Shown piece by piece: positions 16,173-64,000 of a stretch of 64,000 nucleotides of DNA. The stretch covers positions 187,178,001 through 187,242,000 of the forward strand of contig OZ360223.1 of NCBI GenBank assembly GCA_977017645.1. The letters run 5' to 3'. The notes beneath the pieces are model-generated. The model did no database searches and was not told the DNA's origin. It saw only the letters and a program-made list of their open reading frames with translations. The first letter of the stretch is position 1. Every line of letters starts with the position of its first letter. The position numbers and the translations under genes are program-made. The DNA comes from Torpedo marmorata (lineage: Eukaryota).

Positions 16173-16379
16173 NNNNNNNNNNNNNNNNNNNNNNNNNNNN
16201 NNNNNNNNNNNNNNNNNNNNNNNNNNNNNNNNNNNNNNNNNNNNNNNNNNNNNNNNNNNNNNNNNNNNNNNNNNNNNNNNNNNNNNNNNNNNNNNNNNNN
16301 NNNNNNNNNNNNNNNNNNNNNNNNNNNNNNNNNNNNNNNNNNNNNNNNNNNNNNNNNNNNNNNNNNNNNNNNNNNNNNN
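16173..16379. other. Assembly gap (207 N)
   Basis: Run of N. Confidence 1.
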
Positions 16380-16679: not shown

Positions 16680-17240
16680 TGAGCAAACAAAGAATTGCTG
16701 GAGGCACTCAGTAGGTCAAACGGCATTTGTGGGTAGAAATGGTTAGTCGACATTTTGAGTTGAAGCCCTTTATCAAGACTAAGATGGAATAGGTGAGATT
16801 ACATATAAAGGGGGAAAGAAGCTGGGGGAGGGACCCAGAAGTGATACAGTATTGTACGAAGGGCATGGGAGGTGGAGAGACTTGGTAGAGGGAGAAACCA
16901 TTCGGAAGGCAGTTGGGGGGAAGAAAAGTTAAACAGAAAGAGACAAAAGTAAGTACAGGAGGAAGGAAGGAAGAAACGGAAACAGTGGAATCAGATATGG
17001 GTAGGGGTTGTGTAAAAGTAGAAAAATCAGTTGTTCATGCTATCAGGTTTAAGGCTGTCCAGGAGGCTGTTGTTCCTCAAGCTTACACTTAGCCTTGCCC
17101 TGACAATGGATGAGGCCAAGGACTGACATGTCACTGTAGGAATGGTGGTGGGAGTTGAAATGGTTGGCTACAGGAAGCCCAAGTTTAGACCCACAACAAG
17201 AAAGTTGTTCGCTTAAGTGGTCATCCAATCTGCATATGTT
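16680..17240 (-). mobile_element. Penelope-like element 3' fragment (old)
   Basis: ORF 17049-17279 has LPVANHFNS...KLEEQ (GIY-YIG C-terminus); terminus tgctggaggcactcagtaggtc with a decayed hammerhead-like motif. Confidence 0.7.
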
Positions 17241-19910
17241 TGATTGAATAAAAACCCTTTTCCAAAGTAGTGAATACAATTTTGAAGGTTTTGATAACAG
17301 GATAATTTTACATATAAAAATGATTAAATCTGCTTGAGCATCAGCAACAATTTAGTAATAGCTGGTGAACAAGAAATAAACAGCCTCCATTTGGCTGCTC
17401 CCCTGCAAAGTCTCTTTGAGGGATGACTACCCTGAAGAAGTTCTCCTTCTCTCTCTACCCATTAAAAAGGGTTCAGACCTGAAACTCTGACTGCCCTTTA
17501 CTATCTATGGATGCTGCATGACCTGCTGAGTTTCTCCAGCAAGTTTGGTTTCACAATTTCAATTATTCCATCCGAAAAGCCAAATTGGAGCATCCTCATT
17601 TACCTGATTAATAACAGTCCTAACCACATTCTGTCATGAACAGTGCGAACAGCTAACACATTAATGGGAGGAGAACATGTCAAGACCATCAAACTTTAGT
17701 GATGGCAGAGTCCACCATGTACATCTGGACACAAAGCGGACGCACTTGCCACCATCTTCAGCCAGAAGTGCCACGTGTCCTGCAGACAATCTTGCCAATA
17801 CAAAACCTATTCTCAAGCCATTTCAGTTCACTCCACATGATTTCAAGAAGTGGCTGGAATACTAGATACAGAAAATGCTACGAGATCAGACAACATCCAG
17901 ACCATAGTTGAAGGCGTGTACCCCTGAACTGGCCAAGCTACAATGATCTGATTTAATGACTCAAGTGGTCATTTCACCTACATTCTTGCTTGAGTTTGGA
18001 TTAAATCTTGCTGCTTGGTATTAGATAAAACTGATTCGATATGAAAGATAATGGTTTCATCTGACATTTCTAATAATTCTAATTTGATTCTAACTTGTTA
18101 AGTTGTCCACAATTCCAGAATGTCAAGCATCAATAGTTTGATAAATATTAGGCCAAGATATTTTTTCCATCCTTGGGGAAAGATTTTGATTTTTCACATC
18201 TGCTTCCAGTTTATTTTTGAAAAAGAATAATTGCCAAGAAATTGAATTACATAAATACCATTTTTTGTGCTTTGTGATTCCATTTCAATTACAAAGGAAA
18301 ATTGAGCACCCTTTGCAAGTTCTGAGATGTCAGGGGTTCCTTCCAGGTTCTTTGTGTGCCTAAGGTGTTATTACACTGATGTGCTCAAGTCAAGTCAAGT
18401 CACCTTTATTTGTCGTTCATTACCATATACACAGTAAGACGAGATAGCGTTTCTCCAGGACCATGGGCAGATGTACATAAATATCATAATACAATAGAAA
18501 AACTATAACATGCTAATACACATATATATCTAGGAATTGAGGAGCCTGATGGCTTGGGGGAAAAAACTGTTGCACAGTCTGGACGTGCGAGCCCGAGTGC
18601 TTCGGTACCTCCTTCCAGGTGGCAAAGGGGAAAACAGTTTACCAAAGGGGTGTGATAAGTCCTTCACAATGTTTTTAGCCTTCCTCATGCATCGTGTGTT
18701 GTAAATGTCTGTCCTGGTGGGGAGAGAGACTCCAATAATTTTCTCCGCTGCCCTCACTATCCTCTGCAGGATCTTTCGGTCCGAGGTGGTACAGTTTCCA
18801 AACCAAGCGGTGATGCAATTGCTCAGAATACTCTCAATGCATCCCCTGTAGAATGTAGTAAGGATAGGGGGTGGGAGATGAACTTTCCTCAGTCTTCGCA
18901 GGAAGTAAAGACGCTGCTGGGCTTTCTTGATATGGAACTGGTGTTTAGGGACCAGCTGAGACTCTCCGCCAAGTGCACTCCAAGAAACTTGGTACTCTTT
19001 ACGACCTCAACGGTAGAGCCGTCCATGGTCAAAAGAGAATGATCCCCCGGGCCCTTCTGAAGTCAACAACCAACTCTTTTGTTTTGTTCACGTTCAGCTG
19101 CAGGTTGTTGTTTCCACACCATTCCATTAGTGACTGCACCTCATCTCTGTATGCTGACTCATCATTCTTACTGATAAGGCCCACCACGGTTGTATCATCA
19201 GCAAACTTTATGATGTGATTCGAGCTGTGTTTTGCTGCACAGTCATGAGTCAGCAGGGTGAACAGCAATGGACTAAGCACACAGCCCTGGGGAGCCCCCG
19301 TGCTCAATGTAATGACCTTGGAAGTGCTGTTTCCAATCCGGACTGCCTGAGGTCGTCCCGTCAGGAAGTCTAGGATCCAATTATAGAGGGTGTAGTTTAG
19401 GCCCAGCCCCGTCAACTTCCCTATCAGGTATGATCGTGTTTAATGCCGAGCTGAAGTCAATAAACAGCATTCGAACATACGTGTCCTTATTTTCCAGGTG
19501 GGTGAGGGCTAGGTGGAGGGTGGTAATGATGGCATCATCTGTGGAGCGATTTGATCTATATGCGAACTGCAGGGGGTCCAGTTAGGGGGGCAGCAGAAGC
19601 TTGATGTGCCTCATGATGAGCCTCTCGAAGCACTTCATGACGGTGGATGTGAGTGCGACAGGGCGGTAGTCATTGAGGCAGGACACCGTCAACTTCTTCG
19701 GCACGGGGATGATGGTAGCGGCTTTGAAGCACGTTGGTACCACGGCACTGGTCAGGGAGATGTTAAAGATGTCGGTGAGAACATCAACCAGCTGGGCCGC
19801 ACATCCCCTGAGCACTCTGCCAGGAATGTTATCTGGCCCAGCAGCTTTCCGCGGGTTAACCCCGCCTAACACTCTCCTCACGTCGGCCACTGTGAATCAC
19901 AGCACCTGTT

Positions 19911-21440
19911 AAAGTTGGCAAGGGTAGGTATAGAAAAATTTACTTGGAATTATGAAAAGGGTGGTTTACAACTTCCTAATTTTCAAAATTATTATAAAGC
20001 AGCTCAATTAAAATTTATTAATGAATTTTTTGATTTAACTAAATCTTCTGCTTGAATTAGAATAGAATTAAATAATATAGGAGAAGATTCTAAAGAAGAA
20101 GTTATTTATAAATGGGATTCTAAATTAATATCAACAAAAAGGAAAAATTCTCCTATTCTTAAACATCTGTTAGAAATTTGGAGTAAGACGGATAAAGAAA
20201 TAGGAGGAAAAGGAACGATTTCTCCTAAGATGCCTATATATCAAAATGAACTTATTCCATTTACTATTAATAATCAATTATTTAAAATTTGGTTTCAAAA
20301 AGGAATTAAGAAAATAAATGACTGTTTTGAAGCTGGGAAATTTATTACTTTTCAAAGAATGAAAGATAAATTCAATATATTGGATAATACACTTTTTGCT
20401 TATTATCAAATTAGAGCATTTTTGGTTGAGAATTTAGGTTATAGTTTGATTTTACCAAGACAGAATGAATTAGAATTATTAGTTACTAAAGGAGATGTAA
20501 ATAAATTTATTTCTCAAATGTATAGATTGTTTCAGAGAAAAGTTCCTAAAGTAGGAATTCATAAATCAAGATTAAAGTGGGAATTAGATTTGAATGTAAC
20601 AATAGATGAAAATCATTGGAAAGAATTATGCAAATTAAGTATGACAAAGATTATTAATGTTAGATATAGATTAGTACAATACAATTTTTTTCATCAATTA
20701 TATTTAACACCTAAAAAATTAAAGAAATTTAATCCGACATTATCAGGTTTATGTTTTAGATGTAATAAAGAGGAAGGTTCTTTCGTACACTCTACATGGT
20801 TTTGTTCAAAAGTTTATGATTTTTGGTTGAAAGTTAAAAAATTTTAGATAAAGTATTTAAGATTATATTTCCAATGGACCCTATGTTATTTTTATTTGGA
20901 GATATTAAAAAATTTAGTATTAAGATGAAATTAAATATGTATCAAATAGAATGTTTGCGAATTGCTTTAGCTGTTTCAAAGAAATGTATTGCTATTACTT
21001 GGAAATCTGATGTAGATTTAGGGTTAGAAAGATGGCATGCAGAACTTCGTTCATGTATACCACTTGAAAAAATTACTTACAATTTACGTAATAAGTATCA
21101 TTTCTTTTTAAAAAATTTGGAGCCCATATATGAAAGTTGTTGGTTTAAGAATTTGAAAATCTCTGGACATCGGATCTACTGGCGTACCTAACCTCCATAA
21201 TAGAATTAGTTTATAGATGTATTTTTAGATTGACATTCTCCTTATTCTATCTTTTTTCTATCTTTTTTATTTTTTTATTTTATTTTATTTTATTTTATTA
21301 GATTAGTAGGCAGGGGAGGGTTAGGGAGGTGGGGGTGGGAGGGGGGGGGTGAAAATATATCACAAGTATTTTGATAATTTTATAATTTTATCTTATGTAT
21401 TTTGTGGTTTAAAATTTTAAATAAAATATTTTAAAAAAAA
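19911..21440 (+). mobile_element. 5'-truncated L1 (family A) nested in Rex1
   Basis: TSD cacagcacctgtt (19898-19910 / 21441-21453); ORF2 C-terminal CFRC..H..C knuckle; poly-A tail. Confidence 0.92.
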
Positions 21441-22859: not shown

Positions 22860-23725
22860 CTCTGGCTGACACTTCCATGAATTTGGACACATGGGTGGCC
22901 AGGGTTGCATCCAACGTATTGCTCTCCACAATTTCCACCACCTACATCGGGATCCTACTACTCGACATATCTTCACTTTTCCTCCTCTCTCCGCTTTCTG
23001 CAGGGATCTCTCTCCACAACTTCCTCGTCCACTTATCCCCTCCCCTCCCCTGGCACCTCCTCTTGCACTGGCACCTCCTTCGCCACCACCATTCTGGGCC
23101 CCAAACAGTCCTTCCAATTGAAGCAACACATCAACGGTGAATCTGTAGGGGTCACTTACTGCATCTGGTGTTCCCGGCAGCCTTCTCGGGTACTCTCAGG
23201 GGATGCAAATTGGGGGATCACTTTATTTGGCACCTTCGCTCTGTTTGCTGCAACAGCAAGGACCTCCCAGTGGCCAACAACTTCAATTCCATACCCCATT
23301 GTTGAGGCCGCTTGTAAATTGGTGGAAGAACACCTTATTTTCTATCTCTGCAGTCTCCAACCAGGTGGCATCAATGTAGACCTCCAATTTCTGTTCACCC
23401 TCTCCCTCAGTCTCCATTTTTTATACATCCCTCTGTCTACGTTCATACAGCTCGCCAGCCCCTTCCTTCTCCTATGAGCTATCTTTCTTCACCCTCTGCT
23501 CTCTCCCCTGTCTAGTCCTAGCTCTTTTCTCTTCCCCCTCCCACCTGAATCCACCTATCACCTGCTAGCCTGTGCTCCACCACCACCCCTTCCCCCCCCC
23601 CCCCCACCTTCATATTCGTATCTGCCTAATTTTTGGCATTCCTGAAGAAGGGCACAGGCCTGAAACTTCGACTGCCTTTGGCTTTCTTTTGGACCTGCTG
23701 AGTTTCTCCAGCACTTTTGTGTACT
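22860..23725 (+). mobile_element. Penelope-like element 3' fragment (old)
   Basis: HNFHHLHRDPTTRHIF and GVTYCIWCS (GIY-YIG) remnants; terminus cctgctgagtttctccagcac. Confidence 0.75.
23635..23676 (+). ncRNA. Minimal type I hammerhead ribozyme-like motif
   Basis: GGCAUUC-CUGAAGA-A-GGGC ACAG GCCU-GAAA-CUUC-GACUGCC: canonical CUGANGA and GAAA boxes, stem II, and a 6/7-bp stem I. Confidence 0.55.
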
Positions 23726-28242: not shown

Positions 28243-29185
28243 TGTTACAAACTCAAACCAGCAACGACAGAAGACGCTATGCAAAAGGGGTAAAATTGAA
28301 ATTTATATTTATTAAAGATAATAAAACATAATTTTTTAACAATTAACCCCACTATAATGTCTATAAACACTATTCTTATCTAAAGAGTGTGTGTGTGTAA
28401 AGCCCAGACCATTACAGTCTGTGCCCAACCCTCATGTAAAAATGGAAAACCTTCCCCAAAACCCCCAAGTCAGTCATAAAAATAAGTCAGTCCCAAAAAT
28501 ACAGTCCACAAAAATCACTCTCGATGTTCAGGGTCCAAATTCAGCTCTGTGCGCTGGCACGAAGGACTTCTTAATGAACGTTGGAGAGAGAGAGACAATG
28601 ACCGTTTAAGCTTACGAATGGTTGGTCTGCTTTTCTTCCCTGATGACTTTCCCTTTTGGTAGGTGCACGAGGATTGCGATTCCAAATCCGTATACCACTG
28701 ATTGAGGTGTATACTTGGATCTCACAGCCTGTCTCGCTGATCTCACGCTTGTACTCCACGAAATGTGCTTTATCTCAGGATTTTGCTGATACAGGAGGCC
28801 ATGTGCTATTCTCCCAGCCTTTCTAGCTGGAATGCACAAGCCTCTGGTTTTGCTGTGTTGCTCCAGCCTTTTACAACTCCAAACTGAATGCTTTTTGCAG
28901 AGGTTTGCACCTGCTTTTGCAAAAGTGCAACAAAGNNNNNNNNNNNNNNNNNNNNNNNNNNNNNNNNNNNNNNNNNNNNNNNNNNNNNNNNNNNNNNNNN
29001 NNNNNNNNNNNNNNNNNNNNNNNNNNNNNNNNNNNNNNNNNNNNNNNNNNNNNNNNNNNNNNNNNNNNNNNNNNNNNNNNTGGGCAAGTTAATTCTTTCA
29101 GTACCTGGTCCCAGTGTGTACTCAAAAGACTTCATCCTTTCTGCTGACCGTCCACAGTCCAAATGGTCAGTCATGGTCCATAACA
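28243..29185 (-). repeat. 3' LTR (contains N gap 28936-29080)
   Basis: Direct repeat of 35542-36385. Confidence 0.93.
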
Positions 29186-30939: not shown

Positions 30940-32550
30940 TTTATTTTTTTTTTTTTTTATTATTTTATTTAAATTTTTAAATCACACAATACATAAATCA
31001 AAATATGTAATTTCCAAAATACAAGTGATATAAATTTCCTCCCCCCACACCCTCCCACCCTTCCCTAACCCCCCCAACCCCACTATTCTAAAAAAAGAAT
31101 AATAAAAAAAAATACATAGTAAAAGAAAAAGAAAAATAGATTAATAGTGAGGAGAGAACCATCTAAAAACTAATTTTATCCTGGAGGTTAAACTCGCCAA
31201 TAGACCTGATTTCTAGAGATTTCAAATCCTTAAACCCATAACTCTCATATATGGGCTCCAAATTTTTAAAAAAGAATGATATTTATTGCGTAAATTGTAA
31301 GTAATCTTTTCCAAAGGAATACACGAACGAAGTTCTGCATGCCACCTATCTAAACTTAAATCTAAATCTGATTTCCAAGTAATAGCAATACATTTTTTTG
31401 AGACAGCTAAAACAATTCGCAAAAATTCTACCTGATACATATTCAATCTATTCCTAATACTAAATTTTCTAATATCTCCAAATAGAAATAACATAGGGTC
31501 CATTGGAAACATAACATTAAAAACTCTATCTAAAAAATTATTAACTTTCAACCAAAAATCTTGAATTTTTGGACATAACCATGTAGAATGAACAAAAGAA
31601 CCTACTTCATTCTTACATCTAAAACACAAATCCGACAATGTCGGATTAAATTTCTTTAATTTTTTTGGTGTTAAATATAGTTGATGAAAAAAATTATATT
31701 GTACTAATCTACTAATCTATATCTAACATTAATAACTTTAGTCATACTTAATTTACATAAATCTTTCCAGTGATTTCCAGCTATATTAACATTTAAATCT
31801 AATTCCCATTTTAATCTTGATTTATGTAATCCTTCTTTTGGCATTTTTTTCTGAAATAATTTATACATTTGAGAAATAAACTTATTAACATTTGCTTTAG
31901 TTATTAATAATTCTAACTCATTATGTCTTGGAGCAATCAAATTTTCTCCTAATTTCTCAATCAAAAAAGCTTTAACTTGATAATAAGCTAACCATGTATT
32001 ATCTAATACATTAAATTTTTCCTTCAATCTTTGAAACGTAACAAATCTTCCAGCCTCAAAACAATCTTTAAAATTCTTAATTCCTTTTTGAAACCATGCT
32101 TTCAATAACTGATTATTCATAGTAAATAATAAAAGTGGATTTTGATATAATGGCATATTTAAAGAAATTAATCCTTTCCCACCTATTTCTTTATCTACCT
32201 GTGTCCATATTTCCAACAAATGTTTAATAATCGGTGAATTTTTCTTTTTTACTAATAATAATTTAGAATTCCACTTATAGATAATATCCTCTTTATAATT
32301 TTCTCCTATATTATTTAATTCTATATTAACCCAGGCAGAAGTTTTAGTTAAATCAAAAAATTCATTAACAAATTTTAATTGAGCTGCTTTATAATAATAT
32401 TGAAAATTAGGAAGTTGCAATCCTCCCATCTCATAATTCCATGTTAACTTATCCATACTCACTCTTGCTAACTTCTCTTTCCATAAAAAGTTCCTAATAA
32501 TAAACTTTAAATCTTTAAAAAAAAAATTTGGAATTCCAAAAGGAATTGAT
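30940..32550 (-). mobile_element. 5'-truncated L1 (family A) nested in the LTR element's pol
   Basis: TSD tgacctcattaattttt (30923-30939 / 32551-32567); ORFs 31222-31638 and 31704-32462 are L1 ORF2 C-terminal. Confidence 0.92.
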
Positions 32551-35541
32551 TGACCTCATTAATTTTTGACTTAAATCTATAGGGTCCTGAAAATCTAGCC
32601 CTAAGAGGATTTGAATGTGTGGGAAACAGAACTAATACGTTCTCACTAGGTTTAAAAGTTCTCATCTTTGCCTTTCGATCATACCCAACCTTCATTCTCT
32701 GTTGAGTGGCCTTTAAAGTCTCCTTTGCCATCTCACAAGCTTTATGCAACCGATCCTTAAATTTGGAAACATAATCTAACAGATTTATATGCATATCAGT
32801 ATTAATCCACTGTTTTTTAATAACCTTAAAGGACCTCTCACCTCGTGTCCGAAAACTAACTCGAATGGACTAAAACCAAGTGATTCTTGGACAGACTCCC
32901 TCGCTGCAAATAACATCAAATGAACCCCCTCATCCCAATCCTTTTCCTTCTCACAACAATAAGTTCTAATGATGTTTTTCAAAGTCGAATGGAACCTCTC
33001 CAAGGCCCCTTGACTTTCTGGATGGTACGCAGAGGATACAATCTGTTTAACTCCCAGTCTATCAACCACTTGTTGGAATACGCCTGACATGAAATTACTA
33101 CCCTGATCTGATTGAATTTCCATTGGGAAACCTACTAAGGTGAAAACCTTTACCATAGTCTTTACAATTGCCTTTGGTTTAATGTTTCTCAGAGGAATGG
33201 CCTCTGGAAATCTGGTGGCTGCACACAATTGTTGACAAATACTCATTCCCCGCTTTGGTTTTAGGCAATGGGCCAACGCAGTCCACAATCACTCTCGAGA
33301 AAGGCTCACTGAAAGCAGGGATAGGTTGTAAGGGTGCCACTGGGGGACCCTGATTAGGTTTACCCACCACCTGACAAGTGTGACCGGCCCGGCAAAAGCT
33401 TACAACCTTCCTTCTCAAACTGGGCCAATAAAATTGTTTCATTATCTTCTGTATAGTTTTCTTCACCCCAACGTGACCACCTAAGGGTGTGCTATGAGCC
33501 AAAGTTATTATTTCGTCCCTATATACTTTAGGGATCACAACCTGCTGCACTACTGCCCATTCTTCACTGGCAGGAACATCACATGGTCTCCACTTTCTCA
33601 TCAACACCCCATCTTTTTCATAATAACCCACTGGCACCTTTTTAATCTCCTCTTCAGAGAGAACCTTATCCCTCACCTCAGCAAGATCAGGATCCTACTT
33701 TTGCCTTGCTATTAGTTCCTGTCGGGATAGGTGTCTTATCAGTGTGAGGGTGTAACACAGAAGATTGTTCAAGCTTTTCCTGGTGTTTTTTTTATTATCA
33801 CCGACTTTTTCTTTCACCAATTTATTTTCCACTGCCTTCTCTACAGTGACATTTTTCTTAGACATGGCCCTGGTTATGGCACATGCCGGATAAATATCAG
33901 AGTCCTTCTCTGACTTATCAATGACTGGCTTAGTGGTCATTCGCACTGCAGGAACTACTTTATCCTCAGCCAAGTCATTGCCTAGCAACAGTGAGACTCC
34001 TTCTACTGGCAACTCTGATCTCACTCCTATTATAACAGGTCCTTCCACCAAGGCTGAGTCCAACACTATTTTGTGCAAAGGAATGGACTCAACATCACCC
34101 CCAATTCCTTTGATCAAATTCATTTCACTGGTGTTGTAGCTTCACAAAATTCCAAGACCCTATCTAACACAAGTGACTGAGCAGCTCCAGTATCTCGCAA
34201 GATTTTCACTGGAACTTGCTTTGATCCTGCCTTAACTGAAACAAAACCATCAGTCACAAAAGGTTTAAATACATCCCTAACTTTGTCAGTAAATTTGTCT
34301 TCTTCCTGTGTGTTATGCCTCTTCTCACTCTGAATGCATCCTTTTCTCTCTTCTTTTTCAACACTGGACAGCTTGCTATCATATGACCAGCCTTCCTACA
34401 GTAGTGGCAAATGGGACCCGAAGGGTTTTCCCTTTTCCACTTTCCTTCATCCCTTTCCTTAACACCACTTCCAAATTTACTTTCCACAGTGCCCTTTTGG
34501 AAAATTCTGCCTGACGTCCACTTCGGCTTGTGGGTTAAAGCATATTCATCTGCTAATTTAGCTGAATTTTTCCAAGTTTTCACCTCCTTTTCATCTAAGT
34601 ATGCCTTAATATCCTCAGGAACACACCTTTTTATCTCCTCAATTAGTATAAATTCTCTCAATTGATTGTAATCATTATTTACCGCCTTAGATGTGCACTA
34701 CCGGTCAAAAAACACAACCTTTACATAGGCAAACTCTGTAAGATTGGGTTGCTGATCTTTTAAAATTTCTAAACTTCTGTCTATGAGCCTCTGGAACTAA
34801 CTCATAAGCCTGGAGTTTTGCCTTTTTCAACATTTCATAATCAGCAGCTTGCTCCGTGGTAAGAGTAGATAAGCTTGCTGAGCTTTTCCTTTAATTACAC
34901 TTTGTAACATAAGAGACCATTGGTCTTGTGGCCATTTTAATTTCACAGCCACCTTTTCAAAATGTTGGAAGTACTTATCTATTTCCGCCTCCTCAAATGG
35001 AGGAACCAACCTAACTTCTTTACTGGCCAAAAACCTCTCATCGGACCACAAATTTGATCTTGGGGTTCTTCTTGTCTCCTCTCATTTTCCAACTTAATTT
35101 TTTCCAGCTCATATTGCCTAATTTTCTCCTCTGCCTGCAAGTCTAATCTCTTTTGTACCAATTCCAATTTCTTTAGTTCCAACTGTATGTTTTCAGAAGG
35201 TTTACCCTTGGGAAAACTGCTCCAACAACGCTCTCCTCAAACGTTTTCCCTTTTATATAGTTTTTGGCAATTTTTCTTCCAATCTCCACCTTTTTCATTG
35301 ATGGTTTTACAGAAGCAATTCCCAACTCTCTTGCTATAGCCACTAACTGTTCCTTTTTAACCTTTTTTAAAGTATCAGGTTCAGGTGATTCCAAAAAATT
35401 TTCTTCATCCTTTGTTGCTGGTTTTTGTTACCCACACACTAGCTTTTAATTAGCTTTACAAAAGGAATGACTTAAACCAGACTGGGATTCCTTCATTTAC
35501 CAAGCTGGAGCTTGATTCAATCCTTGGACGAACCCCCAATT

Positions 35542-39384: not shown

Positions 39385-39610
39385 ACTGTTTTCTTCTGTT
39401 TGGACTTTATATAGCAATGATAAAGATATATAACCAATGTTTTGGGCTTGAGCCCTTCATCATGGTATGAACAAAATGTAGGCAGTCTCCTGAACAAAAT
39501 GGTGGTGGTTGGGGGTGGGGGGCAGGGGGATGAGCACATTCCCACAGGCTAATACAAGCCTGAATAAGTATGAGGGCATGAGGCGTGTGGAGGGGAGAAT
39601 GGAAACGGGT
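39385..39610 (-). mobile_element. Penelope terminal remnant with decayed hammerhead-like motif
   Basis: ctttatatagcaa...tgttttgggcttgagcccttcatca matches the Penelope terminus at 52105-52170. Confidence 0.6.
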
Positions 39611-45670: not shown

Positions 45671-48600
45671 TTGATAAGGAACATCAAAAGTTAAAAAGAG
45701 ACTGGGTGGGACATGTAGCAGCTTCATCATTTAATTCTAAAGCGAGAGGTGTAGCGATTTTAGTTAATAAAAAATTACCATTTAAAATACAATCAGTAGT
45801 GACTGATGTAGCTGGTAGATATGTTTTAATACATTGTCAAATTTATTCAGAAATATGGACTTTTTTGAATTTATATGTTATAAATCCGGATGACGAACAG
45901 TTTATTCAAGATGCTTTTTTACATTTATCTGAGGCTAAGGAAAATATTTTAATTGGTGGAGACTTTAATTGTTGTTTAAATGCGAGCATGGATAGGACTA
46001 CTAGAACACTTGCTAGACCTAAAATAGTTAAAAGAATTATTAATTTAATGGAAGATTTGAATCTGGTAGATATTTGGAGGAAATTAAACCCTAGAGAAAA
46101 AGATTATTCATTTTATTCTTTTAGACATAATTCATTTTCTAGGATTGATTTGTTTTTGATATCTTCACAAATTCAAGATAGAGTAACTCAAATATCTTAT
46201 AAAGCAAGAATAATTTCAGACCATTCACCTTTATTGATGACGTGTATAATTCCAGAGAAAGAAAAAACTGTATATAATTGGAGATTTGATTCTTCTTTAT
46301 TGAAAAGGAAAGATTTTTGTGAATATATGAGAAAAGAAATCCAGGAATTTTTAAGAATAAATAATAATTCGATTAATGATAAATTTATAATTTGGGAATC
46401 TTTAAAAGCTTACTTAAGAGGTTTGATAATAAGTTTTTTGGCAAAAATTAGAAAAGATTATTTGAAAGAAGAAGGAAAATTGGAAAGGGAGATTGAATTT
46501 ATGGAGAAAGATTTTCAAAGAAATAAAACAATTTTTAGGAGACAACGTTTAATTAGGAAGAAACTGCATTATAATATATTACAAACTCGAAAAATAGAAA
46601 AATTAATTGACAGAACGAAACAAAGATATTATGAATTAGGAGAAAGAGCACATAAAGTTTTAGCATGGCAATTAAAAAAAGAACAAGTTTCTAAAACTAT
46701 AAACGCTATAAAAAAAAAGTACTGGTGAAATAACTTATAAACCTCAGGAAATAAATGAATCTTTTAGAGAATATTATCAGAACTTATATACCTCTCAGAT
46801 TGATCATGATGATACAAAAATTAATAGATTTTTATCCAAAATTACATTACCTAGACTAAATAATTTTAATAGAGATATGTTAGATTTACCTATTACAATG
46901 AGAGAAGTAGTTGAAGCTTTATCGACATTGAAAAGTGGTAAATCTCCTGGTGATGATGGATTTCCGATAGAGTTTTATAAAGAGTTTAAAGATTTATTGA
47001 TACCTATATATATGGAAGTATTGAGTCAAATTAAGGAAACTCATTTATTACCGAAAACTTTTTTGAATGCTATTATTACAGTTATACCAAAGAAAGATAG
47101 AGATGTATTAAAAACTGAGTCATATAGACCTATATCATTGTTGAATGTAGATTATAAAATAATGGCAAAAATTTTAACAAACAGATTAGCTAAGTATTTA
47201 CTGATTTTAATACATTCAGATCAAGCAGGATTTATTAAAAATAGATATTCGAAAGATAATATAGCAAGATTAATAAGTTTAATTAATTTGCAAAAAAGGA
47301 AACAAGATTTGCCGTTGGTGATAACATTAGACGCGGAAAAAGCATTTGATAGATTAGAATGGAATTTTTTATTTAAGGTCTTAGAGAAATATGGATTTGG
47401 GAATACTTTTATAAATTGGATTAAAACTATATATAAAGAACCTACAGCTAGAGTAATTACAAATGGTCAAATATCATCTAAATTCCCCTTGATGAGGTCA
47501 ACAAGACAAGGATGTCCTTTATCACCTGCTTTATTTGTATTGGCAATAGAACCGTTGGCTGAAATGATTAGGAAAGATATTAATATAAATGGGATTAAAG
47601 TAGGTACAGAAGAGCATAAAATTAGTTTATTTGCAGATGATGTATTAATATATATGACAAAGTCTATTGAATCACTTCAACAATTAGCTAAGATATTGAG
47701 GGAGTATGGTGAGATATCTGGTTATAAAATAAATTCGGATAAGAGTGAGATAATGGCTTTATCTCAGGGAGATTATACTAAATGTAAAGAAGTTACAGGA
47801 TTTAAATGGGCTAAAGAAGGAATTAAATATTTGGGAGTTAAAGTAGATACAAAATTGGAAAATTTATATAAATTAAATTATATACCTTTATTTCAGAAAA
47901 TAAAGAAAGATTTGGAGAATTGGAAAGATTTACCTATAACTTTAATGGGAAGAGTGAATTGTATTAAAATGAATATTTTTCCAAGAGTTCAATACCTTTT
48001 TCAATCTATTCCTTTTGGAATTCCTCAACAATTTTTAAAAGATTTAAAAATTATTATTAGGAAATTTTTATGGAAGGGAAAATTAGCGAGAGTAAGTATG
48101 GATAAATTAACTTGGAATTATGAGATGGGTGGATTACAACTCCCCAATTTTCCACATTATTATAAGGCAGCTCAATTAAAGTTTATTAATGAATTTTTTG
48201 ATTTAACTAAATCTACTGCTTGGATTAATATAGAATTGAATAATATAGGGGAGAGATATAAAGAAGATATTATTTATAAATGGAATTCTAAATTATTATT
48301 AGTTAAAAAGAAAAATTCACCGATTATTAAACATTTGTTGGAAATTTGGACATAGTTAGACAATGAGATAGGACGAAAAGGGTTATTATCTCCAAATACG
48401 CCATTGTATCAGAATTTACTATTACCTTTTTCTATTGATAATCAATTTTTAAAAATATGGTTTCAAAAAGGAATTAAGAAGATTAAAGATTGTTTTGAGG
48501 CTGGAAGATTTGTTACATTTTCCAGACTGAAAGAAAAATTTGGAATATTGGATAATACAATTTTAGCTTATTATCAGGTTAAAGGATTTTTAGTTGAGAA

Positions 48601-49620
48601 ATTGGGGAATCAATTAATAGCTCCAAGACAGGATGGATTAGAATTATTAATTACTAATGGAAATGTTAATAAATTTATATCACAAATGTATAAATTACTT
48701 CAGAGAAAAATGCCTAAGGTAGGATTTCATAAATCAAGATTAAGATGGGAATCAGATTTAAATATTAGTATAGATGAAAAACATTGGAAAGATTTATGTA
48801 AATTGAGTATGACTAAAATTATTAATGTTAGGTATAGATTAGTACAATATAATTTTTTTCACCAATTATATTTAACACCTAAAAAATTAAAGAAATTTAA
48901 TCCGGCATTATCAGATATGTGTTTTAGATGTAAGGATGAAATTGGTTCGTTTGTTCATTCAACATGGTTATGTTCTAAAATTAAGGATTTTTGGTCTAAG
49001 GTTAAAGATTTTTTGGATAGAATTTTTAATATTACGGTTCCAATGGATCCTATGTTATTTTTATTTGGAGATATTAAAAAATTTAGTATTAGAAATAGAT
49101 TAAATATGTATCAAATAGAATTTTTGCGAATTGTTTTAGCGGTTTCAAAAAAATGTATTGCTATTACTTGGAAATCAGATTTAGATTTGAATTTAGATAG
49201 ATTGCATGCAGAATTACGTTCATGTATACCATTGGAAAAGATTACATATAATTTACGTAATAAATATCATTTCTTTTTGAAAATTTGGAGCCCATATATG
49301 AGAATTATGGGTATGAATTAATTCTCTAGAAGTCGGCTTCGCTGGCGAAATTAACCTCCAATATATAAATAGAATTAGCTTGTAATTTGTTTTCTCCTCA
49401 CTTTAATTCTTCAATTCTTTATTATTCAACATTTTTCTTTTTTTTTTATATAACCTTTTTTTTTCTTTTTCTTCTTTTTTTTTTAGAGTAGTGGTGGGCG
49501 GGTTGGGGAGGGGAGGGTGGGAGGGGGGGAGGAAATATATCACATGTACTTGGAATGATATATTAGTTTTGATCTATGTATTTTGTGATTTTTAAAATTT
49601 AAATAAAATTATAAAAAAAA
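45671..49620 (+). mobile_element. 5'-truncated L1 (family A), ORF2 almost complete but broken
   Basis: TSD aagaaaagatacgtac (45655-45670 / 49621-49636); EN (GGDFN, SDH) and RT (LDAEKAFD, LFADD); frameshift at the A-run near 46710 and a stop at 48353-48355. Inserted in a - strand Rex1-type tail (about 45540-45670 plus 49637-49840). Confidence 0.95.
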
Positions 49621-50507
49621 AAGAAAAGATACGTACACAAAAGAGAGAAATGTAAAAAACAAAAGAATTTGTAAACAAACTGTGCAATACAGAAAAAAAT
49701 CAGTAATAAATAATGTGCCAAGTAAGAGTTTGAATGAGTCCCTGATTGAGCTTGTTGTTTTGGAGTATGATGGTGGAGGGGTAGCAACTGTTCCTGAACC
49801 TGGTGGTACGAGTCTTGTGGCAGCTATACTTCTTTCCTTGTTCTGGTGGTCAAATCGGGCATATAAGGCATTAAGTTCATCTGGGAGTAAAGCTTTGCTG
49901 TCTTCTACGGCACTGGATTTGGTTTTGTAGCAATTTATGGCATCATGTCATTAACATCAAAGTCTATGCCAATAATATAGATGAAGAAATAGCAGCAACC
50001 CTAACACCATTCCCTGGGGCACCCCATTATTCATCTTTCTCGTCTGAAACCAACCATTGTCTATGACCCTTTTTTGAGTGTTACTTAGCCAACTTCGTGT
50101 TCATCAACAACAATGTTGTAATTTTAAACTGTTTTGTCTATTTTTGCTAATCATTTCACTGTGAATAAACTAAAAAAAAATAATTTCAAGAAATTGAATA
50201 TTCAAAAAAAATTGTTTTACGTACTTGCATAATAATCCTTTACGTGTAGTAATGAAGGCATTTAAGAATGTGTTTGTGTAATCTTCATCTAATGGATCTG
50301 TGATTCAGTGTGTCATTCAGAAAATCTTCCAAAGCCAATTTCAAATCTACCAACACACGTTAGCTCTGTACTACTGTTGCCTGAAGGAAAGACACAGTTC
50401 TACACAATAATGTACTTTTTCACTTGTTCCAAATCACTTTATCATTGGGACTTGATTTCGCCCTCTACCACAATCTCTCATTAAACCAGGCTGCTTTTAT
50501 TGTGAGA

Positions 50508-50707
50508 GTGAAACATAAAAGTCTGCAGACGAGATTGTTGTAAAAACACAAAAATGCTGGAAGAACTCAGCAGGTCTCGTAGCATCCATAGGAGGCAAAG
50601 ATGTAGACCTTGAAGAAGGGCTCAGGCCCGAAAGGTCGGTTATATATCTTTACCTCCCATGGACGTTGCGAGACCTGCTGAGTTCCTCCAGCATTTGTGT
50701 TTTATTA
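50508..50707. mobile_element. Non-autonomous Penelope-derived fold-back mini-element with one apical hammerhead-like motif
   Basis: TSD gct(t/g)ttattgtgaga (50493-50507 / 50708-50722); ~65-70 bp inverted arms enclosing TTGAAGA-A-GGGC TCAG GCCC-GAAA-GGTC. Confidence 0.78.
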
Positions 50708-51433
50708 GCTGTTATTGTGAGACAGGATGGAAATCAGATCATGGATCTTCCGTCAAAGTCCTGACGAGGTAAAGCCCCATGTCCTCTCTCCATGGTGCGC
50801 AGTGCTTGCAGCCAGCAGGGCCAAGTGTTGCCTGCTATTAGTGATTTATCTCTGCTGTGTTATTAACTTCAATATCTCTGTCTTACTGTAACTCAAAAGA
50901 ACCTTAATGAGCCAATACATTTACTGTTAGCAATAGAATTTTATTATTCACTCAGTTTCATATACTTGTTCCTCTGTATGATGTACTATTCATTGCTGAC
51001 TTTACTGTCCTGTCCTTTCAAGTCGCAAAGAATGATTATAAATATGAATAGAAGGAAGCTGGCAACTGTGCCCTTCCCCTTCGTACCTGAAAGAAAGCAA
51101 TTAGTTTTGAATGTTGGGTTCTGTATTATTATTCATTAATACTGTGTGGGTAAAGTGGCATCTCAAGCTTGCATGCATATTCTTCTATTCTTAAAAGCTA
51201 TTTTACTCTGATCAATATATATTGGTTAATCTATTTGTTTTAAGAACACTACCTGAAAATAGATTTTTTTCCATGTCATATTTCTGGATTGAAAGTTTGT
51301 TAAATTTGATTATGCAGAAAGCATGTGAGATTCATGAAGGTGATAGCTTTGTGTACTGCATACCATTGTCTCAGCTTGCAACAGATCTTGCTTTGTCTAA
51401 TCTACTTCTCATTGTCTCTGGCTCCCTCTGCAG

Positions 51434-51643
51434 GATCCTTTAGATCCCACACGCACTGTTATTGTAATTCGCTCTTTGGTGGTTGGTGGGGTTGCTGAAT
51501 GTGATGGCAGGGTGCTACCCGGGGATCGTCTCGTCTTTGTCAATGACCAAAATCTAGAGAATACTGCTTTGGCGGAAGCTGTTCAGGCTTTGAAAGACGC
51601 TCCGTCTGGCAAGGTCCACCTTGGCATCTGCAAACCAATGGTG
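51434..51643 (+). CDS. PATJ: PATJ coding exon (rest of PDZ5)
   Basis: ctctgcag acceptor and GTAAGC donor, 210 nt; [70 protein letters not shown]. Confidence 0.95.
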
Positions 51644-52025
51644 GTAAGCACCAATAATGTCCATGACTTGTAAACATTTGATAACCTCCAATCTCAGCCT
51701 CCAGGAAATTATGCATGCAAGAAAATAACATTAAAGTTGTCATTTTACTGTGGAATTCTGTATTTTGTTTCTTAGTATGAATGCAATTAAAATATGACAT
51801 AAGCTAACTTTTTTTTCTGCATTCGACAGTTGATTTTCAACAAATATTTTCATTTTAGACTGACTCCAAATTTTGACTGACAATGCTGACCATTTCAGTG
51901 TCAAGCCCTTTTTACACTGAAAAGCCACGTTATTGCCATATACACGACACGTCTCTGGAAGCCGGCTTGCTTGTTCACACAGAACAGAAGAACAGCCGGA
52001 TCCATGAGTCTTTTTACACAGCAAG

Positions 52026-55000
52026 TAAAACAAGAAAATCTGTAGACACCGTGATTGAAGTAAAAAACACAAATGCTGGAGAAACTCAGCAGGTCAAACA
52101 GTGTCTTTTATGTAGCAAAGGTAGAAATACATAACCGACGTTTCGGGCTTGAGCCCTTCATCAAAGTATGAGAAAATGCCGGCAGGCATCCGAACAAAAG
52201 AGTGAGGGGGGAAGGGGGGTGGCAAAGGCAGGAGATGATAGTTGGAGAAAGGAGGGACGGGACAGCAGCAAAGAGGGGGAGGAGGGATGGGTGGATAGGT
52301 GGAGGAAAGCAGGAAGGACAGGTGAGGGGGGAGGGGAAGGGAACGACAAGCAGGTTTAGTGGAAAGCAGAAAAGTCAATGTTAATGCCATCTGGCTGGAG
52401 AGTGCCGAGACGGAAAATGAGATGTTGTTCCTTCAATTTGCGGGTAGTGTGGGTGGGATAGTACATAAGGCCATGGACAGACATGTGAGTGTGGGAGTGT
52501 GACCCGGAATTGAAATGGTTGGCTACTGGGAGGTCGCTGTTGTTGCGGACGGAGAGGAGGTGCTCAGCAAAGCGGTTTCCCAATCTACGACCGGTCTCTC
52601 CGATGTAGAGAAATCCACAAAGGGAGCACCGGATGCAGTAAATAAGTTCTCTGGATGTACAAGTGAAGTGTAGTTTCACTTGGAAGGCCTGTTTGGGGCC
52701 CTGGACCGTGATGAGGGGGGAGGTGCAGGCGCAGGTGTTGCACCTCCTGCGGGCACAGGGGAAGGTGCCGGGGGTGCGATGGGTGGGGAGGGATGAGTGC
52801 ACGAGTGAATCGCGGAGGGAACGGTCCCTACGGAAGGCCGAGAGGGAAGGAGAAGGAATAATGTGTCTGGTGGTGGGATCCTGTAGTAAGTGCCGGAAAT
52901 TCCAGCGGATAATGTGTTGGATGCGGAGGCTGGTGGGGTGGTTGGTGAGGAGGGGATTCTATGTTTGTTGCGTCTGGGGGCAGAGGGGGCCAGGGCAGAT
53001 GAGCGGGAAATGGAGGAGATGCGGGTGAGGGCTGAGTTGATGGTGGTGGAGGGGAAGCCACGGTTGTGGAAAAAGGCAGACATTTCAGAAGATCTGGACT
53101 GGAACACCTCATCTTGGGAACAGATGCGGCGGAGGTGGAGAAATTGAGAGAAGGGGATGGAATCCTTGCAGGGGACAGGGTGTGAGGAAGTGTAGTCCAG
53201 ATAGTTGTGGGAGTTGGAGGGTTTGTAGTAAATGTCGGTGGAATGCTTGTCTCCTGAGATGGAGACAGAGAGATCCAGGAAGGGGAGAGTGTTATCGGAG
53301 ATGGACCAGGTGAGTTTGAGATCGTGGTGGAAGTTGGATGCGAAGTGGATGAAGTTGACAAGCTCATCGCGGGTGCATGAGGCAGCCCCGATGTAGTCGT
53401 TGATATAACGGTGGAAGAGATGAGGGGTCTTGCCTGTGTAGGCTTGCAGCATGGATTGCTCCACATAGCCCACAAACAGGCAGGCGTAGCTGGGACCACC
53501 CCCCCCCCCCACCTCATTCTCCCCCACCCCCGCACTGCCCGTTTCTACCTTCTACCCAAGATACACAAACCCAACCATCCGAGCAGACCTATTGTTTCTG
53601 CCTGCTCCTGCCCCACCGAACTAGTTTCATCTTACCTTGACTCCATCTTTTCTCCCCTGGTCCAATCCCTCCCCACCTACATCCGTGACACCTCATATGC
53701 CCTCCATCTCCTCAATGACTTCAGATTCCCTGAACCGGACTGCATCATCTTCACCATGGATGTCCAATCCCTTTATACCTCTATCCCCCACACAGAAGGT
53801 CTGAAAGCACTTAGCTTCTTCCTGGACCAAAGAACCGACCCGTCACCCTCTACCACCACCCTCCTCCGCCTGGCAGAACTTGTCCTCACTCTCAATAACT
53901 TCTCTTTCAACTCATCCCACTTCCTCCAAATCAAAGGAGTAGCATTGGGTCCCCGTTACGCCTGCCTGTTTGTGGGCTTTGTGGAGCAATCCATGCTGCA
54001 AGCCTACACAGTCAAGACCCCTCATCTCTTCCTCCGTTATATCGACGACTACATCGGGGCTGCCTCATGCACCCGCGATGAGCTTGTCAACTTCATCCAC
54101 TTCGCATCCAACTTCCACCACGATCTCAAACTCACCTGGTCCATCTCCGATAACACTCTCCCCTTCCTGGATCTCTCTGTCTCCATCTCAGGAGACAAGC
54201 TTTCCACCGACATTTACTACAAACCCTCCAACTCCCACAACTATCTGGACTACACTTCCTCACACCCTGTCCCCTGCAAGGATTCCATCCCATTCTCTCA
54301 ATTTCTCCACCTCCGCCGCATCTGTTCCCAAGATGAGGTGTTCCACTCCAGATCTTCAGAAATGTCTGCCTTTTTCCACATCCGTGGCTTCCCCTCCACC
54401 ACCATCAACTCAGCCTTCACCTGCATATCCTCCATTTCCCGCTCATCTGCCCTGGCCCCCTCTGCCCCCAGACGCAATAAACATAGAATCCCCCTCATCC
54501 TCACCTACCACCCCACCAGCCTCCGCATCCAACACATTATCCGCCGGAATTTCCGGCACTTACTACAGGATCCCACCACCAGACACATTTTTCCTTCTCC
54601 TCCCCTCTCGGCCTTCCGTTGGGACCGCTCCCTCCGCGATTCACTCGTGCACTCATCCCTCCCCACCCATCGCACCCCCGGCACCTTCCCCTGTGCCCGC
54701 AGAAGGTGCAACACCTGCGCCCACACATCCCCCCCTCACCACGGTCCAGGGCCCCAAACAGGCCTTCCAAGTGAAACTACACATCACTTGTACATCCAGA
54801 GAACTTATTTACTGCATCCGGTGCTCCCTTTGTGGCTTTCTCTACATCGGAGAGACCGATCGTAGATTGGGAGACCGCTTTGCTGAGCAACAACAGCGAC
54901 CTCCCAGTAGCCAACCATTTCAATTCCGGGTCACACTCCCACACTCACATGTCTGTCCATGGCCTTATGTACTATCCCACCCAGACTACCCGCAAATTGG

Positions 55001-55370
55001 AGGAACAACATCTCATTTTCCGTCTCGGCACTCTCCAGCCAGATGGCATTAACATTGACTTTTCTGCTTTCCACTAAACCTGCTTGGCGTTCCCTTCCCC
55101 TCCCCCCTCACCTGTCCTTCCTGCTTTCCTCCACCTACCCAGCCATCCCTCCTCCCCTCTTTGCTGCTGTCCCCTCCCTCCTTTCTCCACCTATCATCTC
55201 CTGCCTTTGCCATCCCCCTTCCCCCGTCACTCTTTTGTTCGGACGCCTGCCGGCATTTTCTCATACTTTGATGAAGTGCTCAAGCCCAAAATGTCGGTTA
55301 TGTATTTCTACCTTTGCTACATAAAAGACACTGTTTGACCTGCTGAGTTTCTCCAGCATTTGTGTTTTTT
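52026..55370. mobile_element. Penelope-like (Neptune-type) retroelement, head-to-head inverted structure
   Basis: TSD (ttttt)acacagcaag (52011-52025 / 55366-55380); + arm RT (FTMDVQSLYTSIP, FLRYIDD), Cys linker CARRRCNTC and GIY-YIG LIYCIRC..LYIGET; the - arm 52060-53496 is its inverted copy. Confidence 0.92.
52130..52170 (-). ncRNA. Minimal hammerhead ribozyme motif in Penelope terminal repeat
   Basis: - strand CAUACU-UUGAUGA-A-GGGC UCAA GCCC-GAAA-CGUC-GGUUAUG: perfect stem II, palindromic ACGU in place of stem III, bulged stem I, C3->U variant. Confidence 0.65.
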
Positions 55371-56576
55371 ACACAGCAAGCTAGCTTCCTGAAGCAAAAG
55401 AGGCGGGACGTGTAGCACAGCAACGTGGCAACACGGCTCGCCGTTTTAGATTGGTCCCGCATCAATACGCTCCATCTCTGATACTACCTACCTTGGCGGA
55501 TAAAAGCCGGGTAAGTTTTGACCCCCCAAATCCGCCTTCGATGTGTTCACACAGCGCTCGAAAGCCAGATAATACCCGGCTTTCAAGTGCCGTATAAAAG
55601 GGGTATTTGATAACCTCAAAACAAAATCAGTCATATTGCTTCCTCATCTTTAAGAAATCCAGTGTTACACATTTGTGCACAAAAATGACAAAGTGCGCAA
55701 ATTCATTATTTAGAGGCTTATGAAGTGTTCTGAAATTGTTTCAATACACTTTGGCCATTAGGTATGATGCGGTTATATTTACATTATTTTAACTGAACTA
55801 GTTTGAAACATTGAAACAGAATGGTTTCAATAGATTCAAGGCGGTTAACAAAACATTTAGAAGATAGATGAGATTTTATTTTTTTCTGCATCAAATTATT
55901 TTGGTTTGAAATGGACTGCCTAGAAGGATGATGATTGCAAAGGAAAAATATTGCAAGGCTGGGGTGGAGAGTGGAGGAAAGGAGCTGAAGAGTTGAGCTC
56001 CTGGTGTAGCTTCTTCCAAGAGCTCACACGGATAGGATGGACTGAATGATTTACTTCTGTGCTGTAAGGTTCTAAGGATTGTTTGCCCCAGAGTCAATAA
56101 GTTACAATGTCTAAGTATCAAGCTGAGATAATTGTCCCTCATTTTGCTGGATCCAATTTTCACACTGTCTATATAAATAGCTCCAGAATGGTTACAAATT
56201 AAGAATCTGGTGGAGAGTTTGCCGCCTCTAACTGTGGTTAACTGTAATTCTTCAATTACTGCTTTTGGTTGAAAATGTAGTAAGTAGGGATTCAAAATAT
56301 TACTTTTTAGTTCTGCACACCTCAGATTAATAACAGGCTGTGCCTTGGGTCACTAAGTTACCAGAGAATCCTTTTGTTTTAAATAACGTATAACCAAGAT
56401 CCATAACATTGATGGTCATGCAATTCCACTGAATCTGATTTATTTTCTGTAAAGACACAAAGAATGGTTGTCATATTCAATCAACATAGATGACATGAAT
56501 CATTGAGATGAATTGCAACAAATTCACAAATTCAAAACTGGAAGCTTATTACAGGCATAATAATAAGTCATTAGTC

Positions 56577-62660: not shown

Positions 62661-63174
62661 TAAATATGTTGCCCTACATCCCAGACCCTGCTGACTCTCT
62701 TAAGTTTAAATTTGAAGAATGAACATTGTTGAATTTCTTGCATCGAGCCATGGATCTGTACAGATATATTTTCACTTTTTCTTTTCCTTTCTCTTTTCTT
62801 TTTTAGTTCTAGTATGGGGAGGGGATAAGGGATGGGAAGGGTGGAGGGTGGGTTGTTTTAGTAAGGGTGGGTTTAGATGGGGTTAGATTCATGGTAATAC
62901 GAAATTCCTATGTATCGAACTTAACCAATGTTTACTATGTATTATGTTATTTTGTATTATTGTGAAAAATTTGAAAAATTTAAAATAAAATATTAAAAAA
63001 AAAAAGAAAAGATGGGAAATTTAAATTCAAGTAAGTAATTAAATAAATTTGGCCTAAAACTAATATGTGGCAAGAAACAGCAAACTACTGGATCATCATA
63101 AAAACCCTATCTGTTTTACTAACATACTTTAGAAAAAGAAAACTGTTCTTCTCGACTTACAGAAATACTGTTTA

Positions 63175-64000
63175 TCTGACTACACTTCCTCACACCCTGT
63201 CCCCTGCAAGGATTCCATCCCCTTCTCTCAATTTCTCCGTCTCCGCCGCATCTGTTCCCAAGATCAGGTGTTCCAGTCCAGATCTTCTGAAAAGTCTGCC
63301 TTTTTCCACAAACGTGACTTCCCCTCCACCACCATCAACTCAGCCCTCGCCCGCATCTCCTCCATTTCCTGCTCATCTGCCCTGGCCCCCTCTGCCCCCA
63401 GACGCAACAAACATAGAATCCCCCTCATCCTCACCTACCACCCCACAAGCCTCCGCATCCAACACATTATCCTCCGGAATTTCCGGCACTTACTACAGGA
63501 TCCCACCACGAGACACATTTTTCCTTCTCCTCCCCTCTCGGCCTTCCGTTGGGACCGCTCCCTCCGCGATTCACTCGTGCACTCATCCCTCCCCACCCAT
63601 CGCACCCCCGGCACCTTCCCCTGTGCCCGCAGGAGGTGCAACACCTGCGCCCACACCTCCCCCCTCACCACGGTCCGGGGCCCCAAACAAGCCTTTCAAG
63701 TGAAACTACACTTCACTTGTACATCCAGAGAACTTATTTTCTGCATCTGGTGCTCCCTTTGTGGCTTTCTCTACGTCGGAGAGACCGATCGTAGATTGGG
63801 AGATCGCTTTGCTGAGCACCTCCTCTCCGTCCGCAACAACAGTGACCTCCCAGTAGCCAACCATTTCAATTCCGAGTCACACTCCCACACTCACATGTCT
63901 GTCCATGGCCTTATGTACTATCCCACCCAGACTACCCGCAAATTGGAGGAACAACATCTCATTTTCCGTCTGGGCACTCTCCAGCCAGATGGCATTAACA
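63175..64000 (+). mobile_element. Penelope-like element 3' portion (runs off the window end)
   Basis: Near-identical to 54247-55052 (thumb, linker, GIY-YIG). Confidence 0.92.

Follow-up and report, generated by a model that had tools for sequence, protein, structure and literature searches.

Penelope-like elements (PLEs) are already known to leave truncated copies in inverted orientation, with a tail on one side and palindromic junctions (PMC8557442, PMC3846280), and the layout of target-site duplication (TSD), tail and inverted copy has been published for them (PMC8557442, PMC3846280, PMC4209133). As set out in the accessible text of PMC8557442 and PMC3846280, endonuclease-bearing (EN+) PLEs of the Neptune/Nematis clade insert as strongly 5'-truncated copies with head-to-head pLTRs, a tail of 30-40 nt on one arm only (also described in PMC11167929), a TSD and a hammerhead ribozyme in the pLTR. 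The minimal hammerheads of metazoan PLEs lack helix III, dimerise through a palindrome at positions 15.2-16.2 and are inactive as monomers; the core pairs described as active in the available text are C3-G8 and U3-A8, and pairs of such hammerheads on opposite strands, 100-700 bp apart, are known (PMC4209133). For PAc, a Poseidon element of Anolis, two reverse transcription starts that bound the tail, together with cleavage of both target strands, fit an insertion made from two cDNAs; hammerhead mutants left PAc insertion unaffected, and in the sections available no RNA-seq reads ended at the cleavage site and no map of inversion junctions is given (PMC11167929).

Here we describe an intronic hairpin insertion of 200 bp at positions 50508-50707 of the window (the whole 64-kb stretch of DNA that was analyzed). 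It derives from an ordinary PLE and is both old and very short. Position numbers with a sign are counted from the predicted cleavage site of its hammerhead, so that +1 is 50638. The insertion and its flanks comprise the following features:

50493-50507 (+): left TSD, 14/15 against the right copy; its last two bases also match the end of the family tail
50508-50540 (-): PLE 3' tail, unpaired, 33 nt, on the left arm only; homologous to the tails at 52024-52059 and 15577-15612
50541-50605 (-): left arm, antisense to the stretch of the pLTR that follows the hammerhead, with no ambiguity from +6 onward
50606-50609 (+): junction; 50607-50609 is the family's stem I 5' strand and doubles as a 3-nt microhomology
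50610-50637 (+): minimal type I hammerhead core (UUGAAGA-A / GGGC-UCAG-GCCC / GAAA-GGUC), predicted cleavage after C50637
50638-50707 (+): right arm, the part of the pLTR past the cleavage site in sense orientation, with no tail at its end
50708-50722 (+): right TSD, 14/15 identical to the left copy

Anatomy of the insertion

The insertion has the hallmarks of an EN+ PLE copy: it is inverted and 5'-truncated, carries a 33-nt tail on one side and lies within a TSD. A match of 14/15 is far from chance, as none of 197,615 random pairs of 15-mers 150-400 nt apart reached it. Including the end of the arm, the tail is 79% and 75% identical, each over 73 nt, to the two other tails in the window. The inverted arms (50541-50605 and 50643-50707) span 65 nt at 85% complementarity, and all seven differences between them within 44 ungapped nt are transitions. 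The hairpin folds at -108.4 kcal/mol (z = -13.8), a value equaled by none of 200 shuffles. An earlier sequence-only reading had described a TSD of about 15 bp, an unpaired tail of about 33 nt and inverted arms of about 65-70 bp, and our coordinates bear out all three. The insertion is common to two related organisms, A and C (records 1, 8, 25 and 32 of the aligned contigs), and is therefore old. Compared with the published EN+ PLE insertions in their accessible descriptions, both arms are short (no more than 100 nt), so that no coding sequence is left, and the TSD of 15 bp is longer than the 8-10 bp of the rotifer examples.

The same reading had placed a hammerhead core at the apex of the hairpin, and this holds: 50610-50637 is of the minimal type I kind found in PLEs. 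It shares with the motifs in PMC4209133, as far as these are described in the available text, the core boxes, the extra base between 9 and 10.1, the G10.1-C11.1 pair and the lack of helix III. Measured against a core of CUGANGA, GAAA and UH with stem II and an extra base before 10.1, it deviates at one place, a U at position 3. Stem II comprises 4 bp (50618-50621 with 50626-50629) at a pair probability of 1.0. Among the nine hammerhead-bearing ends tabulated within the window, six have U at position 3, and in five of these it lies opposite G8; judging from these sequences, U3 opposite G8 looks like a trait of the subfamily, whereas the U3 pair given in the available text of PMC4209133 is U3-A8. 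Rfam returned no hammerhead match at 50508-50707 at the gathering score or up to an E value of 1; its miRNA-like and generic hairpin matches, below the gathering score, were discarded as hairpin artifacts.

This copy is most likely a dead ribozyme, to judge from its sequence and predicted fold. Base 50634 is a private G, a base that accounts for at most 1.5-4.3% of family depth against 96-98% for C and T together. Because of this G, the palindrome needed for a dimeric helix III has been lost: the 15.1-16.1 segment is not self-complementary in 50508-50707 (nor is 15.2-16.2, the stretch palindromic in PMC4209133), while it is intact in the copy at 52.1 kb and across 48-85% of family depth. G50634 also gives rise to a rival helix of 6 bp (50606-50611 with 50632-50637) that would bury the core, with a probability of 0.82-0.85 in the predicted ensemble. 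Stem I reaches only 0.11-0.15, contrary to the earlier proposal that stem I of the ribozyme extends into the whole hairpin. The hammerhead-like fold lies only 1.4 kcal/mol above the minimum in a model that leaves out tertiary contacts. As a side observation, 50606 also departs from the family, and the two off-family bases 50606 and 50634 complete a perfect 6-bp inverted repeat (50606-50611 and 50632-50637), a possible trace of hairpin-templated repair or of an arm that once ran through the cleavage site.

Relatives in the window

A BLAST search against the window recovered several relatives of 50508-50707, two of which share its layout:

52011-55380 (unstranded): long relative; TSD 15/15, tail, two head-to-head arms (1.44 and 1.9 kb), a hammerhead at each end
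15563-15838 (unstranded): short relative from a sister subfamily; TSD 14/14, tail, two decayed head-to-head hammerheads, junction at about -27 to -32

Alongside these two, 50508-50707 is the shortest member of a series of insertions left by PLEs. The long relative (3.4 kb) sits in the same gene; its arms are 95% identical to each other and reach -1347 and -1797, and its left hammerhead has kept the palindrome. Its coding sequence includes the YIDD motif of RT, a linker of the form CxxxxCxxC and a GIY-YIG/CCHH region, with the RT and GIY-YIG motifs frameshifted. Pfam matches were weak and below the cut-off (RVT_1, E = 0.0016; GIY-YIG, E = 0.00066), and no solved structure matched the RT stretch. 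The proteins closest to its coding sequence are 57-64% identical, the top one from the whale shark, which points to a cartilaginous fish as the probable host, and the linker agrees with the Cys-rich linker between RT and EN published for the Neptune/Nematis clade. The pLTR of 50508-50707 is 76-78% identical to the pLTRs of this coding element (52024-55372), which supports the earlier suggestion of Penelope-type machinery with RT and GIY-YIG domains. No autonomous, ORF-bearing partner of the exact 50508-50707 subfamily was seen.

Further PLE remnants lie at 16685-17255 (-), 17452-17551 (+), 22907-23722 (+), 39406-39499 (-) and 63173-64000 (+), and the one that ends at 23722 has the canonical C3 core. 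Long inverted matches of 83-89% (31234-32553, 48001-49312, 19912-21117) belong to dispersed copies of another, probably LINE-like, repeat. The assembly contains runs of N at 16173-16379 and 28936-29080, away from the insertion.

The junction and the family around it

The position of the junction relative to the cleavage site is the point on which the sequence-only reading was most specific, holding that the left arm ends exactly opposite that site. Two repeat finders instead end the arm at +6. Pairing at ACC (50607-50609) is expected in any copy, because ACC is the family's own stem I 5' strand, as can be told from contigs of related organisms that continue upstream there into PLE-like sequence. 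Readings of the junction range from -3 to +6: it may be an overlap that ends at +1 (with two more changes), an arm end at +6 plus a single added base, or an arm continuing past the cleavage site up to -3 with 5 nt deleted. A single copy cannot decide among the three. In the open-access literature (supplements and subscription papers lying outside the search) we found no report that maps inversion junctions against the hammerhead cleavage site.

To place this copy within its family, contigs from four of nine sequencing runs of related organisms were aligned to 50380-50830; the best run shares 0.36 of its words with the reference, and contig counts are not copy numbers. Between 13,856 and 42,887 contigs per run align on the element in all four runs. 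Upstream of 50607, 572, 549, 1,037 and 208 contigs per run (2,366 in total) continue into sequence like the coding relative's 3' UTR, and in one run (X9) 476 contigs pass from the left arm to a hammerhead in inverted orientation. Read depth at 50603 is 0.3-1.7% of that at 50596. The family thus mostly reads on past both sides of the junction of 50508-50707. No empty target site was seen among the contigs.

Exact strand-switch joints from 50607 to +2, +6 or +7 were nevertheless found in 17 contigs, with 20 more that have unknown letters in between, and such junctions make up five of the best 15 of 366 joint classes; in addition, 11 of the 32 pieces listed run co-linearly across the junction. 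They amount to about 0.4-2.2% of the read-through contigs. The size of any enrichment is not derivable from these figures, because the reference favors its own junction and only the best 15 of the 366 classes are listed. Within those 15, no joint class falls at stem II or at the ACGT palindrome, where the microhomology is just as good and where a model of microhomology alone would place joints as well. Four joint rows (50576-50651, 50593-50646, 50594-50651 and 50576-50672) were not counted as fold-back junctions, since they probably stem from subfamily indels or divergence. The 17 exact and 20 ambiguous joints stand against 2,366 read-through contigs.

Origin of the insertion

The explanation that we favor, with a probability of roughly 70%, is that 50508-50707 is the shortest form of an ordinary EN+ PLE insertion of the Neptune/Nematis type, in which early-stopped cDNAs joined through stem I. 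What is seen is two 5'-truncated 3' ends of the element, head to head within a 15-bp TSD, one with the tail and one without, and the relatives of the same layout have other junctions (about -30 and -1347/-1797). By analogy with PAc, as described in the available text of PMC11167929, the PLE protein would nick both target strands, and reverse transcription would start at both of the sites flanking the tail. Two cDNAs could then grow toward each other, stop early and be joined at the DNA level by their stem-I complementarity; alternatively, one cDNA may have folded back on itself through the stem-I complement. The inserted copy would then have decayed. Stem I of every type I hammerhead adjoins the cleavage site. 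A join through stem I therefore lands near that site without any cleavage. Against this explanation stand the recurrence of similar junctions in related genomes, the lack of joints at stem II and the ACGT palindrome among the classes listed, and the fact that no autonomous partner of the exact subfamily was seen.

A different hypothesis is that the junction records ribozyme activity: the arm with the tail would have been copied from hammerhead-cut RNA, and the end of the run-off cDNA would have annealed to a second cDNA via the stem-I complement. We consider this unlikely. It draws on the joints from 50607 to +2, +6 and +7, which recur in all four runs, on the one junction reading that sets the arm end at +1 and on conservation, since the family keeps stem II and mostly also the palindrome or its CpG-decay form (C or T at 50634). 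By sequence alone, however, it is inseparable from microhomology in stem I, which predicts the same sequence without cleavage, and the alternative reading that takes the arm through the site to -3 counts against it. No pile of loose ends appears at 50638 among the six top places per run (24 of 1,137 rows), and depth shows no consistent step there across runs. The U3 opposite G8 of the subfamily also differs from the C3-G8 and U3-A8 pairs described as active, and PAc worked with unprocessed RNA in vitro, according to the accessible text (PMC11167929). Read as an in vivo footprint of self-cleavage, with cleaved PLE RNA as template, run-off reverse transcription and stem-I-guided joining, the recurring stem-I junctions would likewise have a rather low probability.

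Unrelated hammerhead families offer a comparison for this hypothesis. A scan of metagenome contigs with a generic minimal-hammerhead pattern gave at least 121 loci (L001-L121). An upstream inverted arm was present in 34 of the 121 listed hits with at least 40 nt of upstream sequence (e.g., L008:401-479, L071:401-426 and L011:106-131). The 34 hits lie in 29 loci and reduce to about 22 distinct junctions once L043 and L115 are dropped and duplicates merged by eye. None of the 34 arms in these listed hits ends between -3 and +6, the nearest lying at -9 and +18, and the arm detector, run as a control, does find 50508-50707, at +6. The upper 95% bound for a cleavage-site class is accordingly 8% on the 34 arms and 13% on the 22 or so distinct junctions. 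Many of these junctions have overlapping bases. A hot spot of 5' ends at the 5' edge of the ribozyme was not supported in these loci: in 68 of 111 locus groups, the ends are broadly spread, at 0.011-0.019 per nt from -28 to -65. Thus, short fold-backs are common products of PLEs, and arms do not generally stop at the cleavage site; as those loci belong to other families, the result is compatible with a cleavage effect specific to the present one. The conserved pLTR motif itself had no match in metagenome, prokaryote or viral contigs.

A third hypothesis, which we regard as quite improbable, is that the insertion was once a longer, two-hammerhead fold-back resembling 15563-15838 and later lost its apex by deletion between the short direct repeats of stem I. 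Such a two-hammerhead form is present in the window and is common among the metagenome loci, microhomology deletions have been reported in PLE copies (PMC3846280, in its accessible part), and the insertion, common to organisms A and C, is old. No longer allele was seen, however, and the listed orthologous pieces stop short of the junction.

Finally, the proposal of the sequence-only reading that 50508-50707 represents a distinct non-coding element of retrozyme or SINE type does not stand as it was put, because every base belongs to a PLE 3' end, insertions with the same ends differ in their junction and the family mostly reads through. A separate, non-autonomous fold-back family, whose transcript PLE proteins would copy as a whole (200 nt), is very improbable: paralogous contigs of about equal length and junction do exist (e.g., X2 record 9, 50508-50693), PLE proteins can act in trans (PMC3846280, available part) and animal retrozymes are thought to stem from pLTRs, but these contigs are about 11-18% diverged from 50508-50707, their joints vary (+2, +6, +7), they make up about 0.4-2% of read-through contigs, there is one ribozyme and no tandem array, and the 64 kb hold no other copy that has the 50508-50707 junction. 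Animal non-LTR retrozymes, in their accessible descriptions, resemble the insertion in being non-coding, 170-400 nt long, equipped with type I hammerheads and probably of PLE origin; they differ in forming head-to-tail tandems with two or more hammerheads and circular RNA (PMC7229834, bioRxiv 10.64898/2026.07.22.740005). The insertion is instead a single head-to-head copy with one minimal motif, and no head-to-tail units each bearing a hammerhead were found at 50508-50707.

As found, the ordinary EN+ PLE insertion at 50508-50707 has little significance of its own: truncated PLE ends are very numerous, and the layout is already published. The recurring stem-I junction is one testable lead, and a cleavage footprint is unproven and, in our estimate, improbable. 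Should the excess of such junctions depend on cleavage, it would bear on the role of the hammerhead in EN+ PLEs, described as unclear in the available text of PMC8557442; the one reconstituted element, PAc, which belongs to another clade, did without cleavage (PMC11167929, accessible text). In that case, the function of PLE hammerheads could be probed with fossil insertions, and a family of high copy number would prove to have a working U3-G8 core. Given such a family, rich in short fold-backs, the hammerhead question would become countable from genome sequence.

Host gene context

The insertion lies in an intron of the following gene:

51434-51646 (+): host PATJ (InaD-like) PDZ exon, 726 nt downstream of the insertion; 3' end approximate

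The best solved match of this exon is the InaD-like protein PATJ (E = 3.3e-23). The motif is thus in sense orientation in a PATJ intron, in agreement with the distance of about 730 nt upstream of an exon given in the sequence-only reading. Within the host gene, the insertion is most likely a neutral intronic hairpin. In the host pre-mRNA, the predicted 65-bp hairpin (50541-50707) could be a substrate for editing or for small-RNA production.
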